Below, piece after piece: positions 28,821 through 62,242 of a stretch of 64,000 nt of DNA (position 1 is the first letter of the stretch; the number at the start of each line of letters is the position of its first letter). The stretch comes from a phage. The stretch is taken from sequence record NC_135732.1. The stretch is one strand, 5' to 3'. The position numbers and the translations under genes are program-made. The notes under the pieces are model-generated. The model did not search any database, had not been told where the DNA came from, and saw only the letters and a list, made by a program, of their open reading frames with translations.

Positions 28821-29006
28821 ATGGTAAAAAATAAATCTTTAGAGCAGGCTGAAAACCTTCTCCACGAGCTGGTAAAGGAGTGGAAAGTTGAATACTCAGA
28901 TTTTAATGCACGAGAGGGTGAAGATTATTGGCCTACGGAGCGCTCAGAGGGCGAATGGTATCAAGATTTTATAGAGTGGTTATATCAGACGTGCGATGAG
29001 GGGTGA
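28821..29006 (+). CDS. hypothetical small protein
   Basis: AAAGGAGA RBS then ATG. Confidence 0.45.
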   Translation: MVKNKSLEQAENLLHELVKEWKVEYSDFNAREGEDYWPTERSEGEWYQDFIEWLYQTCDEG

Positions 29007-29535: not shown

Positions 29536-29883
29536 ATGCCAAAGATTAAAACGTTATTACTGTGGGTAGCTGTTTTAGCTTTTATAGGGTACTGGACTTG
29601 GGAAACTGAATTAAAAGATATCGGATATACCAGTCTTGAGAGCAAGGCGTGCATTGGCATAACCGATGCGTTCAGGCAAAATGCTCTGGATCACGAATGT
29701 GTTGATGCAGATATAGATGAGAAACTGTCTAAGGACAAAGATTTTTACCATGGGCATGCTTTACTTGATAGTGGTGACACTGTAGAGTTCTGGTCGTGGT
29801 TTCGTGAAGATGGAACAATAAAAACAGCAGTAAAGATCTCTAACAAAGAGTTAATGCTGTTGCAGCAAAAGGAGGCTCAATGA
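29536..29883 (+). CDS. hypothetical protein, N-terminal membrane anchor
   Basis: RBS; N-terminal LLLWVAVLAFIGYW. Confidence 0.5.
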   Translation: MPKIKTLLLWVAVLAFIGYWTWETELKDIGYTSLESKACIGITDAFRQNALDHECVDADIDEKLSKDKDFYHGHALLDSGDTVEFWSWFREDGTIKTAVKISNKELMLLQQKEAQ

Positions 29884-30167
29884 TCTGGATATCCTATGCT
29901 GATGGCACCATGCTGTATACTGCAGGTACCAGATATGAAGTTCAGGAGAACGATAAAAAATTTATCGTAAAAACATTTGACAAGGACGACAACCTTTTGC
30001 TAGAATTGACTTACAAAGTTGGAGAGGTATCCAATATCCAGTTGGATTGTGGTCATAAAGATAATCCACTCAAAAAACCTGGAGTAGGTAAGGCTTCAGA
30101 AGAACGTCTGTCTCGTATTGCAGAAAGCGTTTCTCCCCAAAAATCTAAGAAGAGGACTAGAAAATGA
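29880..30167 (+). CDS. hypothetical protein
   Basis: AAGGAGG RBS. Confidence 0.5.
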   Translation: MIWISYADGTMLYTAGTRYEVQENDKKFIVKTFDKDDNLLLELTYKVGEVSNIQLDCGHKDNPLKKPGVGKASEERLSRIAESVSPQKSKKRTRK

Positions 30168-32499: not shown

Positions 32500-32820
32500 A
32501 TGCAAATTGAAATCACTGGCAACAATGTAGAAATCACAGAAGGTATGGTATCTTTTATTTCCCGCAAAATGTCCAAGCTGGAGCGTTTACATCCCTCTGT
32601 TAACTATGCACGTGTGAGTGTAAAAGTTGAAAATGATCACCAGGAAGTTATGGCGTTCATTTTTGACAATTCTGGAAAAGAAGTTATTGCCAAGGCTAAA
32701 GGCAGTGATGCTTACGAGGCAACTGACCGTATGGTAGATGTTGCAGCACGTCAGCTGGCTAAATGCGGTGGAAAGAAAGGTAAGGGGAAAGGCAAAGTAA
32801 AGATTGACTTTGGAGAATGA
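32500..32820 (+). CDS. hpf: ribosome hibernation promoting factor homolog (HPF/RaiA family)
   Basis: MQIEITGNNVEITEGM...VSVKVEN...ARQLAK matches E. coli HPF as recalled; AAAGGAAC RBS. Confidence 0.7.
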   Translation: MQIEITGNNVEITEGMVSFISRKMSKLERLHPSVNYARVSVKVENDHQEVMAFIFDNSGKEVIAKAKGSDAYEATDRMVDVAARQLAKCGGKKGKGKGKVKIDFGE

Positions 32821-38471: not shown

Positions 38472-39791
38472 TAAGTTCTTCTCTTTTCTTTTACCGAGTA
38501 ATTCGGGTTTTCTGTTCTCTTCGGTTTGAAGGGGTATGGAGATACACCTGAGTGAACAGGGTGAACAACCGAACCATTAGCTATGGCATTAGCATGGCGA
38601 AGCGGACGGGTGACGAAAGAGGGGCCGGAGGACACCAGTCACTGCCATATGATATATGGGTGATAACCTGAAGAGTCTGAATAAGTGTTTAAGTACCAGT
38701 CAGAGGAAAAGGTGAATGGTAGCCGAAGGGGGAGGGGGGGTTTCTTGTATCTTTAATTTGTATATTATGTATACACTTGTAAACCAATTTCATATGAATC
38801 TGTTTACCACACAAAGTGGATTGAGACAAATATTACCTATTAAACTTGAATTATTTATAGAAAATACCACAACACACCTTAAGTCTTTGATTTTACACAT
38901 AAATCTTACAGATATTCAACCTCCATATTTAACATACTTGTAACATATCCTATACCACACCTGCCTGATCAATTCCCCCAACTACATCCTCTATATTTTC
39001 CCTGTCTGTACTACCCCATCCCCGCCGGGAGTCCCGTCATATCTGGCTTTCCAGCAAATATCACACCCACAAATATCATTGCCTGAAGAGGGTTTCATCC
39101 TCTAATACCTGCCTTACCTGAAGAGCGCTTCATACACCACGTAAATTTTTTAATTGACCTGCAATTTTCCCGTCATGACCCCCTGCCCCGCCGGAGAGGT
39201 TGGCTTTTCCCACACAGACCTGAAGAGTCAGCCAGAAATATCTGAACAGGCCCAATTCTACCACGATTTTGACCTGACCTACAGGAGTGCTGCCAGGCGG
39301 ACGAAATGGGAATACTTCTCATTCTTATAATAATTCTCAAATATCGAGGCAGTGAAGCAAATTAATAGGTGAGGCCGTTCACATAGTGGCACAACATTTG
39401 CAATCTATTTTGTGTGGGGGAATGAGAATACCTATCATTGTGAGAACTGTTATCATTACGGGCAATTTAACATAATACCCATTATGCGCACCACTGGCGA
39501 TACATACAGGGATTGATAACATGAGTTACTGTTTACGCATATAACAATTATATTTATTACTATTTGTGTGGGATATAGTTAGCAGCCGATAGATTAGATA
39601 TTGACCTGCGGACTTCTGACCGTCTAGACGTCTAAACGCCCACACAGCAAGAGTTATACATACATCGCTGAATGTAAACAGGGCCGCAAAAATGCTACCA
39701 TACCAGTTTGTAAATTTTTCATGCAGCACTTGACAAAGAGGAGAAAAACTTGTCTGACATAATGTGACCTAACTGACACAACATGACACTT

Positions 39792-39875
39792 TTACACACC
39801 TATTAGTTTACACACTGGATTGTTTACATTCCTGATTGTTCACATGCTAACCATTTACATGATTGACTGTTTACA
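39792..39875. repeat. iteron-like array of TTTACA(C/T)A motifs
   Basis: Six copies at about 15-16 bp spacing (39792, 39807, 39823, 39838 variant, 39854, 39870). Confidence 0.6.
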
Positions 39876-39888
39876 CACCGATAATCAG

Positions 39889-40138
39889 CCATGCCATTCG
39901 TTTGCATGACAATAATTATACATGACAATAATCGCACTGATTATAATTAGCATGACATAATATAAAAGCAGGGCAACTATTAGCAGATCTATAGTTGCCT
40001 TGCTTGTTATGTCATGATTAACTAAATACAAGGCAACTATGATCTGATTAATAGTTTGCAGACAAACTATCACGGGGGTGATGGTTACTGCTTTTATATT
40101 ATGTCGCGACTCCGTCGCGCCATGCCATTCGTTTGCAT
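39889..40138. repeat. symmetric element: 18-bp direct repeats flanking inverted repeats
   Basis: CATGCCATTCGTTTGCAT at 39890 and 40121; inverted arms 39950-39971 and 40089-40111; internal hairpin 39971-39998. Confidence 0.6.
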
Positions 40139-40763
40139 AGTTGCCTTATTGTTACAGATAAAATAATTGTATTGTTAATTATTTCTTATCTTTCTATTAG
40201 TCATCTAATGATTTCAGTTAATATAGTAACGTACAGTAAACATTAGACGACTAAAGATTTCTCTGCTTATGGTAACCTAACGTGACAATTCCAGACTGTT
40301 TACGAAAAATGTTGACACCTGGGCCGATTTATGTTATGCAGTTTACACGAATAATTATTTTATGCAGGTATTGACTATTCCGTTATTCTACGGTTGGAAT
40401 AAATGCTTAGCAGGCTATAGAATGGCGAGCGTACGTAAATTCTGAGATCTGGCGGCTATAGTTATACTCGATTTTTCACGTAGAAAACGCTTTTGTAGTT
40501 ATGTAAGTGTATGACTTATAAGAATTTTTAGTTGTTGACAAGCTATTGAAGATATGCATCAGGTTAAATTTTGTGCAAATGCTGCATTACGTGCAATTTT
40601 GGAAGGAAAAACGTGTAAAAATGGCCCTGCTACCACACAATGAAAAATTATGCAATAGTTATTTTATATGTATGTTTGTACAGTGGGGTTAATTGCTGGC
40701 TTGTTGATTATTCCATTTGCCAGGCGGGGCCATTTGTGGTAGGAAAAGAGGAGACAAAAAGAA

Positions 40764-40788
40764 AGGGGCTTTAAGCCCCTGACCGTGC
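40764..40788 (-). terminator. rho-independent terminator for minus-strand block
   Basis: GGGGC-TTTAA-GCCCC hairpin followed on the minus strand by TTTCTTTTT. Confidence 0.6.
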
Positions 40789-40799
40789 ACCTTGTTGTA

Positions 40800-41064
40800 T
40801 TATTTGTTGCTCATCCAGTTTTCCCAAGCTGCCTGATAATCTGCCTCACTACGGCGGATCTCTTCTTGCTCTTCAAGGCGGATCTCTTCTTCCAGGTACC
40901 CCAAGATGTCAGCCTTTTTGGTCTGGCGTAACATCCAATCATCTTTTTTTACGAGTGAAGATCTTATAAGCTTTCTCGCAAACCTCTTTTTTGCTACCTT
41001 TCTGGACTTCAAGAATTCTGTAGGCCATGTACTGAACTAATTTAAGCTGATCCAGACGTTTCAT
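40800..41064 (-). pseudogene. small basic protein gene with apparent 1-nt frameshift at an A7 tract
   Basis: ATG 41064 frame stops at 40939; downstream frame (track ORF 40800..41012, TTG start) continues; junction at homopolymer 40944-40950. Confidence 0.4.
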
Positions 41065-41141
41065 GATGTTTCCTCTTTATGTGGTTCGTTTTGATTAGTT
41101 GATAATACAGCAGTTCGCAGATCAGTCTTTAGCAATTCATG

Positions 41142-41360
41142 CTATTTACTCACAACGGTGTCGAAAACAAATTTTTCTTTATTGTCTAAACTCACGTATC
41201 CGATTCGACCACGCAAGCCGCAAGTAGTGCCGTACTCGTAACCATTAAGGCCTTTAACCTTCCAATCCGTACCCATTAAAACCGCATTATATTCCTGACC
41301 AACTACAAAAGCGCCCCCAGTCGATTCAATGCAAACAACTTTAATTTTACGGGTTGTCAT
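41142..41360 (-). CDS. hypothetical protein
   Basis: ATG 41360 with AGAAAG upstream. Confidence 0.5.
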   Translation of the reverse strand: MTTRKIKVVCIESTGGAFVVGQEYNAVLMGTDWKVKGLNGYEYGTTCGLRGRIGYVSLDNKEKFVFDTVVSK

Positions 41361-41420
41361 TTTCTTTCTCTCTTTGTGTGGTTCTGATTAGTGGGCCTTT
41401 TGGCCCGTGTCATTATCTTA

Positions 41421-41693
41421 TTACTTACGGCGGCAGAATTCAAGCGTTTTTAATTGATAATCTTCCTCAGCCTGGAGTACAACCGCCTCGATCATTTCGT
41501 TGGCATTGTTGAAGCCATACCCTTTAGCGAACTCATCCGCACCACCTTCGTGATCATGTTCTGCGTTCATCGCTTCCACGAAATGGAATTCAAGATTATT
41601 GAGATAAGGGCTTGATGTTCCGTCCTCTTTTTCGATGAGATCCCAAATAGCATTAAAACGTGATTCGACTTCTTGATTAATCCAGCTTGACAT
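41421..41693 (-). CDS. hypothetical acidic protein
   Basis: GAGGAAAAC RBS. Confidence 0.5.
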   Translation of the reverse strand: MSSWINQEVESRFNAIWDLIEKEDGTSSPYLNNLEFHFVEAMNAEHDHEGGADEFAKGYGFNNANEMIEAVVLQAEEDYQLKTLEFCRRK

Positions 41694-41946
41694 AATGTTT
41701 TCCTCTCTTCTGGTTGTTGTGTGGGCACTTTTGCCCCTTCAAGATAAATGTTACCCCACCCCATGGCAGATGTCAACGGTTTTTATAGTTCTTATATGAC
41801 AGGCAGGCCCGGTGATTTGCGATCATAGTGATTCCTCCAGATCTTCCCGAACCTTTTCGGTTTATTCAGTTTATTGTTACGCTGGCGGCGTTCTGGCAGC
41901 TCTTCGGAATCGTGGGGGCGCTTTACAATTTTTTCGAAATTAATTT

Positions 41947-42294
41947 TCATAAATTTCCCCCTTTACTAATTTCAATATTTGCCTGAATCGCCCGGATACG
42001 ACGTTTTATGACCTCCTGATCCTTGCAATCATATCCCCAAAAGTCTACGATCTTTGCGCCTCCGGCCTTTAGGCGGTATAGTGTTTCCTGCATCTTGTAA
42101 GCTGGGATCGGTCGCGGTGTTACCTGGTCGCCTCTCTCATCTTTGTACTTGATTATGTAGTCTTCGTTGTCGTTGAATACCCAAAATGGGTATTCTGTGA
42201 GCGCGTTGCTATCTTTTTCGTTTTTAGATTGGATCTTGTTTACAATTAAAGCCGTAGCAATAGCGCCAATAATAAAACTTGCCCCGCTGATCAT
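41947..42294 (-). CDS. hypothetical protein, N-terminal membrane anchor
   Basis: ATG 42294; N-terminal hydrophobic helix. Confidence 0.5.
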   Translation of the reverse strand: MISGASFIIGAIATALIVNKIQSKNEKDSNALTEYPFWVFNDNEDYIIKYKDERGDQVTPRPIPAYKMQETLYRLKAGGAKIVDFWGYDCKDQEVIKRRIRAIQANIEISKGGNL

Positions 42295-42368
42295 GTACTT
42301 TCTCCTTTCATGGTGTTAATAAATTATCTTTATAGATGGCCCTGCAACCAGGACCACCGAAAAAATAA

Positions 42369-42614
42369 CTATTTCACAATGCCTACAAAACAGATCCCGC
42401 CTTCACCTATATAAGCAATATCGGTCACTTTATAACTTGTCAAGATCTGCTTATTTAGTTCATTAATAAAATCGGTCATTGCGTTGGTGTAGTTGTCTTC
42501 CGTGTCTAAGGCATAATCCCAAGTGTACACCTTTTTACGTCCGAAGCCTTTTACCATGATACGGGCGCTTTTGGTGTTGGTAGGGGCATAATATTTGGTG
42601 ATTAGTGCTGCCAT
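42369..42614 (-). CDS. hypothetical protein
   Basis: GGAG RBS. Confidence 0.5.
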   Translation of the reverse strand: MAALITKYYAPTNTKSARIMVKGFGRKKVYTWDYALDTEDNYTNAMTDFINELNKQILTSYKVTDIAYIGEGGICFVGIVK

Positions 42615-42703
42615 GGTTTTAACTCCTATGCATTAGTTCAGTGTTAACAGTATAAAGTTTACTTTATTGATGGCCCTGGTGTCAAGGCCATCTAAAAATA
42701 AGC

Positions 42704-43045
42704 TTACTCGTTTTCTTCCAGCTCCGCAAGCTCTTCTTTTGCTTCTTCTAACTCTGTCTGTAATTCCTGGTATTCTTCATCGTCCTCAATATCCAGGCTG
42801 TCGATGTAGTCGCTAAATCCGCAGCGGTAAGCGATAGGATCTAGCTCCTTGAGGATACGCGACGGAAGAAAAGAAATGTTTCCGATCATAATTTCGCCGT
42901 AGATCTCGTCTAACCATTCATCATAGTTTTCGTCGTACTTGTCCTCGTCGATTTCAAAGTTATCGATCTTATTCTCAAGGTCTGCGATCTGTTTTTTCAG
43001 TTCAGCGATCTGCATAGCTTTTTCTGAGGCGGTCATAGTAGTCAT
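42704..43045 (-). CDS. acidic coiled-coil protein
   Basis: AAGGAGAAAAAC RBS; heptad-like QIAELKKQIADLENKI and acidic C-terminus. Confidence 0.5.
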   Translation of the reverse strand: MTTMTASEKAMQIAELKKQIADLENKIDNFEIDEDKYDENYDEWLDEIYGEIMIGNISFLPSRILKELDPIAYRCGFSDYIDSLDIEDDEEYQELQTELEEAKEELAELEENE

Positions 43046-43096
43046 GGTGTTTTTCTCCTTTTGTGTGTTCTGGGAAGTTTTCCCGTTTATGTGCTT

Positions 43097-43124
43097 ATTA
43101 TATCGATTTAAGTTAGCTTGTCAA
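43097..43124 (-). promoter_or_regulatory. sigma70-like promoter (minus strand)
   Basis: Minus-strand TTGACA, 16-nt spacer, TATAAT upstream of 43045 gene. Confidence 0.55.
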
Positions 43125-43307
43125 TTAAAAGTTTAAGAAAAATTTTGCGACACCGTTGGCGCTACCCATCAACATTTGCGCCAGGATGTACCCAATGATG
43201 CAAACGATGATGGTTACCTTTGTGTGCTGGCGGGAAACATTCCCGCCTTTTGTGTCTAGTTTACTTAAATTTTGCAGCGTGTCAATGATTTTTATTCGTG
43301 GGCGCAT
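43125..43307 (-). CDS. small membrane protein
   Basis: ATG 43307 with no clear RBS, possibly coupled; hydrophobic core. Confidence 0.35.
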   Translation of the reverse strand: MRPRIKIIDTLQNLSKLDTKGGNVSRQHTKVTIIVCIIGYILAQMLMGSANGVAKFFLNF

Positions 43308-43690
43308 GTTACAATGTGCTTTTTATAGCCCAGGTGGTCAGCAAGTGCCGACAAAAACTCTTCTTCGTAGATCCAGCCGTCGGCAGTGATCCCCATAGCA
43401 TTTAATGCGCTCTCAAGTGCTGCGTTAGCTTTATCATAACCGTGACCGCTCGCCTTGCCGCCAGTATAGCCGTACTTATTGTTCTTGTTGTCGTGAATCC
43501 AAAACACGCAGTAGTGAGTGTTCCCGCTGGCGGCGGCATAATACCGGATCTCAGCTACTTCGTGCAAATTATTGTCATCGTCCAGGCCCACCAGATTATA
43601 AGCCTTGTAAAATCCACGATCACGGCGGCAGTTCTTGACATCAGAAAAAGAAAAGTCCGCATTATCAAAATTAAAGGTAGTGGTTTTCAT
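43292..43690 (-). CDS. hypothetical protein
   Basis: AAGAGGA RBS; GYTGGKASGHGYDK motif, function unknown. Confidence 0.5.
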   Translation of the reverse strand: MKTTTFNFDNADFSFSDVKNCRRDRGFYKAYNLVGLDDDNNLHEVAEIRYYAAASGNTHYCVFWIHDNKNNKYGYTGGKASGHGYDKANAALESALNAMGITADGWIYEEEFLSALADHLGYKKHIVTCAHE

Positions 43691-43754
43691 GATTTTATCC
43701 TCTTAGTGTCTTTTGTGCTTTTAGTGTATTTGGTGTCGGACTATATGTCAATAC

Positions 43755-60916: not shown

Positions 60917-62242
60917 TTATTGATCAGAATTATCTTTCGTAATTAAGGTCTGGGTAAGTTTGTAATAGCGGAAGCCACCGCCACCTTGCCAGCTTGCAGA
61001 CTTAGAAATACCACCTTGATCTTCACCATCAATCACTTTTTGCAAGCGAGGGATAATATGGGTATGACAATGATCACCCAGTTCGATCAAGATCCAACGT
61101 CTTTTCATCTTGTGGGCTACAGCAGCAGTAGTTCCCGAACCGCCGAATGAATCCAATACCAAATCACCTTCTCGCGTACACATTTCGAGAATCCGCTTCA
61201 AAAGCGCTTCTGGTTTTTTTCCATTTTTGAAACTAACGCCGCCTTCATTTGCTATTCCATTCCAACTAATGTCTGTCCAAACATCAGTTATTAGTTCCGC
61301 AGGTTGCATCTCACCGTCAATTTCCAAAAGCCTGTTGGAGTAAAAGACCATTTGCCTACCATTTGCGATATAAAATCCTTCAACATCCTCATTCGGATGT
61401 ACATAAACCTTATCCCTATCTTTCTTTGACTTCTCGATAGTTTCTTTTCTCTTTATTTTAGCGCCACCACCAATTGCAACAGATTGAAATACACGTTCTG
61501 CATTATCAATTGCGAATTGTGCTAATTCATCATCGAATGTGTCAGGCAGTTTTTTCTTAGCTTCTTTTGCATCTTTATAGCCATTGGCCTTTGCAAACGC
61601 ATCGGCAATACCGCACCACGTCCAATTTTTATAATGGTCATCCGGGTTTAATAGGTATTTGTTATATCCTGTATCATACCCTTTAGTTATATAGATTTTG
61701 TTAAGCGGTTTCTGGTTGCGATCTTTTGCATATACAAGCAAAAAGTTTGCTGTGGAGAAAACTGTGGCTCCTGTTGCCTTAAATCCCGAAGGGGAATTTG
61801 TGGTCATCGATATGGTATTTAGCTGATTTGCACGACCAAAAATCTCGTCCATCAAAACTTTTAAATACGCCATTTCGCAACCATCTAAGTGAACGAATAT
61901 TACCCCATCATCACTCAGAAGATTACGAATTATTTCTAACCTATCCCTCATTAAGCCCAGCCAAATGGAATGCTCCAGACTATCATCGTAGTGCTCAAAA
62001 GCCCTTCCGGTATTGAATGGTGGGTCTATGTAAACACACTTCACTTTGCCTGCATACTCTTGCTCTAGCGCCTTCAATGCTAATAAGTTATCTCCAAAAA
62101 TCAGCTTATTATCAAAAATATCGTTTTCGGTCACTTTCTGGCTGTGGTAAGACTTGCTCGAATCTTCTAACAAAGTGTGCGGCTCTAGCTTTTTGCGCTC
62201 GTTTTTACCTATCCAGGTGAGTTCTAATTTGGTTTTGCTCAT
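60917..62242 (-). CDS. DNA amino-methyltransferase (N6-adenine or N4-cytosine, beta class)
   Basis: Motif IV VYIDPPFNTG precedes motif I DSFGGSGTT (circularly permuted order). Confidence 0.7.
   Translation of the reverse strand: MSKTKLELTWIGKNERKKLEPHTLLEDSSKSYHSQKVTENDIFDNKLIFGDNLLALKALEQEYAGKVKCVYIDPPFNTGRAFEHYDDSLEHSIWLGLMRDRLEIIRNLLSDDGVIFVHLDGCEMAYLKVLMDEIFGRANQLNTISMTTNSPSGFKATGATVFSTANFLLVYAKDRNQKPLNKIYITKGYDTGYNKYLLNPDDHYKNWTWCGIADAFAKANGYKDAKEAKKKLPDTFDDELAQFAIDNAERVFQSVAIGGGAKIKRKETIEKSKKDRDKVYVHPNEDVEGFYIANGRQMVFYSNRLLEIDGEMQPAELITDVWTDISWNGIANEGGVSFKNGKKPEALLKRILEMCTREGDLVLDSFGGSGTTAAVAHKMKRRWILIELGDHCHTHIIPRLQKVIDGEDQGGISKSASWQGGGGFRYYKLTQTLITKDNSDQ

Follow-up and report, generated by a model that had tools for sequence, protein, structure and literature searches.

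Whether a small gene that is interrupted by a run of seven A residues in a phage genome is a genuine mutant allele, a sequencing artefact or a site of recoding is the question raised by this locus. The window, by which we mean the whole 64-kb stretch of DNA analysed here, belongs to a Vequintavirus, an rV5-like phage of Escherichia coli. Its best match in the phage collection searched is about 96% identical over 24 kb of the window, and the region of the interrupted gene shares 99.5% identity with Escherichia phage APECc02 and 95% with rV5, both of the genus Vequintavirus. Complete E. coli genomes gave no match, and plasmid sequences gave a single one, at 95.5%. After weighing the alternatives, we think it very probable that the interrupted gene, a small early accessory gene of Vequintavirus, is present here as a genuine and heritable allele in which replication slippage turned A6 into A7.

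A small gene split at a run of seven A residues

An earlier note on this DNA had described an ATG at 41064 opening a frame that stops at 40939, a second frame, listed from a TTG, that continues to 40800, and a meeting of the two at seven A residues on the coding strand. All three observations were confirmed by reading the window sequence and, for the second frame, the list of open reading frames (Table 1). The first frame (ORF1) starts at the ATG at 41064-41062 on the minus strand, translates as MKRLDQLKLVQYMAYRILEVQKGSKKEVCEKAYKIFTRKKR and closes straight after the A7 run at a TGA (40941-40939); it contains ancestral residues 1-40, then one out-of-frame Arg and the stop. The second frame, listed from the TTG at 41012, overlaps the A7 run and reaches its stop at 40802-40800. 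Within it, the ATG of a downstream 44-aa ORF (40934-40932) lies 4 nt past the ORF1 stop, and no recognisable Shine-Dalgarno sequence was seen before this ATG when the sequence was read.

Deletion of one A from the A7 run gives a single 264-nt ORF. The fusion proposed in the earlier note is therefore correct, with the amendment that the product has 87 residues and the figure of 88 counts codons including the stop. Similarly, the description of the product as a small basic protein applies to the N-terminal 41 residues (pI 10.2); the C-terminal 44 residues are acidic (pI 4.6), and the whole repaired protein is only mildly basic (pI 8.6). Members of this family are expected to be single uninterrupted ORFs of about 87 codons, and the window instead has 41 and 44 codons in separate pieces. 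Judged from its sequence, the window carries a disrupted allele of a member of the PHROG 11701 / rV5 gp160 family.

Table 1. Features of the split gene, its operon and other loci of the window mentioned in the text
Feature	Position	Strand	Description
Sigma-70-like promoter	41748..41776	minus	TTGACA, 17 nt spacer, TAACAT; 10/12 matches
First operon gene	41421..41693	minus	90 aa, intact; ortholog of rV5 gp162; PHROG 7287, no assigned function
Second operon gene	41142..41360	minus	72 aa, intact; ortholog of rV5 gp161; PHROG 27558, no assigned function
Shine-Dalgarno sequence of ORF1	41071..41077	minus	AAGAGGA, from reading the sequence; 6 nt between its end and the ORF1 ATG
Split gene	40800-41064	minus	265 nt in the window, split by A7
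ORF1	40939..41064	minus	41 aa (MKRLDQ...IFTRKKR); N-terminal remnant of the rV5 gp160 ortholog
First A6 tract (tract 1)	40987..40992	minus	Lys25-Lys26; wild-type length in the window, A5 or A7 in other assemblies
A7 run (tract 2)	40944..40950	minus	Frameshift site; Lys39-Lys40 plus one extra A; A6 in relatives
Downstream ORF	40800..40934	minus	44 aa (MLRQTKK...WMSNK); ancestral residues 44-87 in the ancestral frame
Intrinsic terminator	40754..40780	minus	AGGGGCTTAAAGCCCCT, then T-run; closes the three-gene operon
ORF-free stretch	39500-40700		AT-rich (34-36% GC), between two convergent transcription units
Iteron-like repeats	39860-40160		CAAGGCAACTAT in direct and inverted copies
Inverted repeat	39954-39971 / 40088-40105		18 nt, perfect
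Direct repeat	39888 / 40119		20 nt, perfect
95-aa accessory gene	29880-30167		Ortholog of APCEc02_092; two A6 tracts; intact in the window
Variable A6 tract of the 95-aa gene	30072-30077		
Second 7-nt A/T run	61214-61220		Inside an intact 441-aa ORF
Length difference from APECc02	28826-28831		A6 vs A7, in APCEc02_095, within about 20 nt of its 3′ end
Length difference from APECc02	32784-32788		G4 vs G5, in APCEc02_083, within about 20 nt of its 3′ end

Identity of the gene and its operon

The split gene is the ortholog of rV5 gp160 (ORF165, YP_002003662.1), of APCEc02_064 and of bas55_0130, and it belongs to PHROG 11701, which has no assigned function. The repaired 87-aa protein matched the PHROG 11701 profile over residues 1-87 of 87 (E = 1e-54), and ORF1 alone matched profile positions 1-40 of 87 (E = 1e-22). 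Because homologs align with the locus base for base and the repaired protein matches PHROG 11701 over its full length, the two frames are more than a chance juxtaposition. The gene stands at a conserved position as the last member of a gp162-gp161-gp160 early operon, before the terminator. The promoter precedes the first gene of the operon by 55 nt, the same spacing as that of promoter P168 annotated in rV5. The window and rV5 thus share both the locus and the whole arrangement of promoter, gp162, gp161, gp160 and terminator, and differ in that the window has A7 and a split ORF.

Some variation was seen around this arrangement. The 72-aa gp161 ortholog is missing from some relatives. A 139-aa gene (rV5 gp159 and others) follows about 155 nt downstream of the gp160 ortholog in many relatives and is absent from the window and from APECc02, as seen when window positions of about 40640-40800 were compared with five relatives (L003, L011, L013, L017 and L020). 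The neighbouring ORF-free stretch with its iteron-like repeats (Table 1) could be an origin or a regulatory region; an Rfam search gave no match in the window, this stretch included.

A Pfam search with the repaired protein returned no significant match. AlphaFold predicted four helices (residues 3-20, 25-35, 39-47 and 50-86) with a pLDDT of 92, only one of the five models being confident, and Foldseek found no PDB structure that matched this model at E below 3 (best E = 3). APCEc02_064 and several relatives carry the label 'DNA translocase FtsK'. This label has no support here: a protein of the FtsK/SpoIIIE kind would have an ATPase domain in a chain of several hundred residues, and the product here has only 87 residues, no FtsK domain in Pfam (E up to 1) and no fold match. 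Product names in the APECc02 record (KR698074.1) look displaced by one gene, with 'glutaredoxin 1' assigned to a CDS of 2124 nt and 'anaerobic ribonucleoside-triphosphate reductase' to one of 117 nt, and its labels, including the one on the present gene, are therefore unreliable.

Ancestral state of the tract

An alignment of the gene from APECc02, JeffSchatz and rV5 with that of the window has a single length difference, A6 versus A7; DNA identity in the gene between the window and rV5 gp160, APCEc02_064 and bas55_0130 is 96-99.6%. Of about 85 distinct phage records, namely those listed in two rankings of the 112 matching phage records that hold the gene, all except one have a gene of 264 nt (265 in the window). 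The exception is an 'UNVERIFIED' record, Campylobacter phage D1, which has A6 and a GC insertion 12 nt downstream. Every phage record aligned has an in-frame A6 or AAAAAG at the site. Phage Alma shows several frameshifts in or near the gene. The two lysine codons read AAAAAG in one IMG/VR relative, and Lys-Ala replaces them in a Septuagintavirus homolog; the homopolymer itself is therefore not conserved. On these alignments, the ancestral state is one ORF with A6, which was broken in the window by one added base.

This comparison of homologs for A6 or A7 had been proposed in the earlier note, which regarded homologs encoding two separate small proteins, together with reads that clearly support A7, as evidence against its reading. 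Aligned phage relatives have A6 or AAAAAG, A7 is a small minority, and only that minority of homologs has the two-protein arrangement. The minority of split homologs shows a real allele and does not make two ORFs the usual arrangement.

Reality of the A7 allele

A homopolymer error in sequencing or assembly would mean that the phage truly has A6 and an intact 87-aa gene. The uniform A6 or AAAAAG of the aligned phage-collection relatives and the 264-nt length of all listed records but one would agree with such an error. The site is also at the upper limit of A/T run length in the window, which has 43 A6/T6 runs, two runs of 7 and none longer. In addition, IMG/VR, JGI metagenomes and GTDB genomes were scanned for the exact A7 pattern without a match; the A7 alleles found here sit in ENA and NCBI assemblies, outside the coverage of those scans. 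One of the A5 alleles described below stems from an early and possibly 454-sequenced sample (SRR053015 / JGI 2051223002).

However, the A7 run recurs in independent assemblies. An ENA metagenome scaffold (ERZ28598976 scaffold_4773, 3211 nt; L022) is 100% identical to window positions 40534-43744 without a gap, A7 included. Three more cases of A7 are a 136-kb contig of the E. coli assembly GCA_028607445.2 (L018), with about 92% identity over the gene, and the metagenome contigs L020 and L021. These last three assemblies fall in two other sequence backgrounds, and synonymous sites 1-6 nt from the tract differ among the A7 backgrounds.

The remainder of the window also speaks against an error-prone sequence. 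We compared the whole window with APECc02 gap by gap, in place of a scan in which every homopolymer was edited by one base and ORF fusions were sought; that scan was too noisy, since close-packed genes fuse by chance, and it missed the real case. The comparison yielded 77 gaps, and the one isolated mid-gene frameshift among them, in 64 kb with 43 A6/T6 runs, is the A7 site. Other homopolymer length differences from APECc02 are intergenic or within a few codons of gene ends; the two in APCEc02_095 and APCEc02_083 (Table 1) alter only the last few codons of small annotated CDSs.

Illumina MiSeq sequencing makes few homopolymer errors at a length of 7. The exact 41-aa product is on record as 'Phage protein [Escherichia phage rV5_ev146]', and annotations of the exact 44-aa product exist for rV5_ev146 and for a contig of an E. 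coli assembly, so that the split appears to have been annotated already as two ORFs in that phage, as far as protein identity indicates. The ev-named rV5 phages were sequenced on the Illumina MiSeq and assembled with SPAdes (PMC6969025). On the protein match to rV5_ev146, the window probably is that phage, and Illumina MiSeq is the probable platform of the window as well, which is a further point against an error. Taken with the control genes considered below, these data make a sequencing or assembly error distinctly unlikely.

Tract-length alleles across assemblies

Length variants were found at both A6 tracts of the gene. Tract 2 has A7 in the window and L022, in L018, and in L020 and L021, and A5 in JGI 2051223002 / SRR053015 (L009, L014 and L015) and in ERR4562514 (L017). 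Tract 1 has A5 in ERZ28584856 / SRR8353813 (L011 and L012) and in ERR7366388 (L013), and A7 in SRR8316686 (L016). In all tract variants, the downstream codons, although out of frame, still encode the wild-type protein, and background differences are synonymous in the original frame; we therefore regard the tract events as recent and independent. Recoding of one kind or another that kept the A7 allele expressed would leave the downstream codons equally intact. No stop interrupts the +1 frame of the gene for about 67 codons, as a result of which the A5 alleles yield 83-aa basic chimeric products. Elsewhere in the gene, in-frame deletions were observed, of 8 aa between direct repeats GAAGAAGAGATCCGCC (P0013), of 14 aa exactly between the two A6 tracts (P0018) and of 10 aa (P0020).

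The contig collection is heterogeneous and some contigs are short; the 5′ end of L020 is rearranged, L021 has odd substitutions, and minority-variant contigs produced by assemblers could inflate the variant counts. One contig (L019, Logan SRR2193611_270) was left out of the A7 count, as it begins past the tract. With a length of 127 kb, it breaks off 19 nt downstream of the second A tract, and such a break beside a homopolymer could reflect tract-length heterogeneity within the sample.

For comparison, we turned to A6 tracts in other genes of the window, predicted the proteins that a change to A5 or A7 would create there, and sought each of them as an exact match; homology searching, tried with a control gene, is unusable for frequencies, because truncated products are hidden in clusters with full-length representatives. 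In the same background, the split gene gave 4 A5/A7 variants to 94 wild-type contigs. The second tract of the 95-aa accessory gene gave 8 variants (3 A5 and 5 A7) to 352 wild-type. No A5/A7 variants were found for NrdG (129 wild-type contigs), ThyX (164), a 166-aa conserved protein (402) or a ClpP-like protease (32), three of these four larger control genes being enzyme or protease genes. The difference between the two accessory genes (12/458) and the four other genes (0/727, with at least 727 wild-type observations) is significant by Fisher's test (p = 1e-5). Random sequencing errors would not have spared the four larger genes. The pattern fits real slippage mutations that are removed where a gene matters and tolerated where it does not. 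The 95-aa gene thus also appears to be dispensable, and the split gene does not seem special among dispensable genes, judging from the similar ratios of the two accessory genes (4:94 versus 8:352, p = 0.30, with small counts and uneven sampling).

The same numbers bear on the idea of a contingency, or phase-variable, locus, in which the A6 tracts would be selected on/off switches of a gene that benefits the phage on certain hosts and is a burden on others. Such a locus would be in keeping with the +1 or -1 events in two tracts of one 264-nt gene, of which at least eight seem to be independent, and with the other disruptions nearby in Campylobacter phage D1 (the GC insertion) and phage Alma (the several shifts). 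Homopolymer-slippage pseudogenes and contingency loci of bacteria and some phages likewise show a one-base change in a run that switches the frame and recurs in several lineages. However, the tracts of the present gene have only 6-7 nt, and tracts of 6 are short for a contingency locus. No significant excess of variants over the control tract was found, as the ratios above show, and one relative breaks tract 2 with a G while another has Lys-Ala there. A contingency locus is thus highly improbable, and we likewise hold it very improbable that both A6 tracts form a mutational on/off switch kept by selection. If that were true, the gene product would help the phage on certain E. coli hosts and harm it on others, for instance by triggering an abortive-infection defence, and there would be a standing pool of A5/A7 'off' alleles, possibly with leaky A7 alleles that make some full-length protein through slips on the A run.

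Recoding and split-gene function

Programmed recoding would produce the full-length protein from the A7 allele, either by a +1 slip of tRNA-Lys on AAA_AAA_A before AGA-UGA or by slippage of RNA polymerase such that the transcript loses one A. The sequence at the junction would allow the first: tRNA-Lys that slips by +1 from the second AAA finds a perfect match again and would yield the exact ancestral 87-aa sequence, and such re-pairing is needed for recoding but does not suffice for it; ahead in the original frame lie AGA, a rare codon in E. coli, and then UGA; and the downstream codons are undamaged in all A7 alleles. Nevertheless, we consider programmed recoding extremely unlikely. The in-frame A6 is the rule among relatives and the shifted arrangement a rare exception, so that no two-frame organisation is conserved, and neither is the run (AAAAAG in one relative, Lys-Ala in another). 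No Shine-Dalgarno-like sequence lies upstream of the run, the downstream 101 nt of RNA fold no better than shuffled sequence (z = -0.92), and a local hairpin is broken in rV5 by a U-to-C substitution. The rV5-like phages carry their own tRNA-Arg(UCU), which reads AGA. Moreover, the control accessory gene has similar A5/A7 alleles without a comparable rescue path. As for the polymerase, efficient transcriptional slippage in E. coli needs about 9 or more A's, and the present run has 7.

Three known systems resemble the locus in part. The -1 frameshift of E. coli dnaX (A AAA AAG), which gives the truncated gamma product, shares with it an A-run encoding lysine and a stop soon after in the shifted frame, and a -1 shift in the A6 wild type would give exactly the 41-aa product of the window. 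However, the present gene has no conserved heptamer, upstream Shine-Dalgarno-like element or conserved downstream hairpin, and the shift lies in the DNA, not in translation. The +1 shifts of the prfB type and those at AGA/AGG 'hungry codons' share the need for +1 movement before an in-frame UGA and a rare AGA in the A site; here, in contrast, there is no Shine-Dalgarno-like stimulator, the arrangement is not conserved, and the phage group has the tRNA-Arg(UCU). In transcriptional slippage of bacterial IS elements and in the frameshift rescue of endosymbionts, an A-run at the frameshift is also present and a slip of the polymerase could restore the frame, but known cases have runs of about 9 or more, compared with 7 in the window.

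A second possibility is a functional split gene, in which the A7 allele makes 41-aa and 44-aa pieces that jointly keep the function, the latter by termination-reinitiation at the ATG past the stop. The 4-nt distance from the ORF1 stop to this in-frame ATG is compatible with translational coupling, the break adjoins residues 36-38, a predicted loop that joins helix 2 to helix 3, and both ORFs are annotated as proteins in two records. However, no Shine-Dalgarno sequence precedes the second ATG, and the split would cut predicted helix 3 (residues 39-47) and lose residues 41-43, on a structure in which one of five models is confident. Furthermore, the tract-2 A5 allele and both tract-1 alleles cannot give the same pieces, yet are about as frequent as A7; this similar frequency points to tolerated loss rather than a selected split. 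We therefore consider a functional split gene unlikely.

Discussion

Overall, we favour a natural slippage allele and propose the following putative mechanism. Slippage of the polymerase during DNA replication would lengthen the A6 of codons Lys39-Lys40 to A7. In the window, translation from the normal start ends two codons later at TGA and yields a 41-aa basic peptide, corresponding in the only confident structure model to helices 1-2 of the predicted four-helix protein, and the acidic C-terminal 44 codons are left out of frame behind ORF1. The polymorphism suggests that the gene is dispensable at least on some hosts. Alleles with +1 or -1 changes in the tracts may thus arise repeatedly, be tolerated for a while and persist as low-frequency polymorphisms in natural rV5-like populations.

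The A7 allele is most probably a loss-of-function or hypomorphic allele. It is possible that a little of the C-terminal half is made by termination-reinitiation at the ATG 4 nt past the stop, and equally a little full-length protein may possibly arise by unprogrammed slippage on the A run. Among the three explanations that the earlier note had offered, a pseudogene or split-gene allele fits the data, a sequencing error is unlikely, and programmed slippage is without support.

The finding is real but ordinary, a recurrent frameshift polymorphism in a small early gene of an rV5-like phage. Annotators should regard the 41-aa and 44-aa ORFs as a single disrupted ortholog of rV5 gp160 and drop the inherited name 'DNA translocase FtsK'. 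Its meaning for biology at large is small; it is an example of how slippage in short homopolymers disables small accessory genes of virulent phages. In phage biology, natural frameshifts are tolerated in the split gene and in the 95-aa gene, which suggests that both are dispensable, and the A6 tracts of the two genes are places where escape or adaptation mutants are to be expected.
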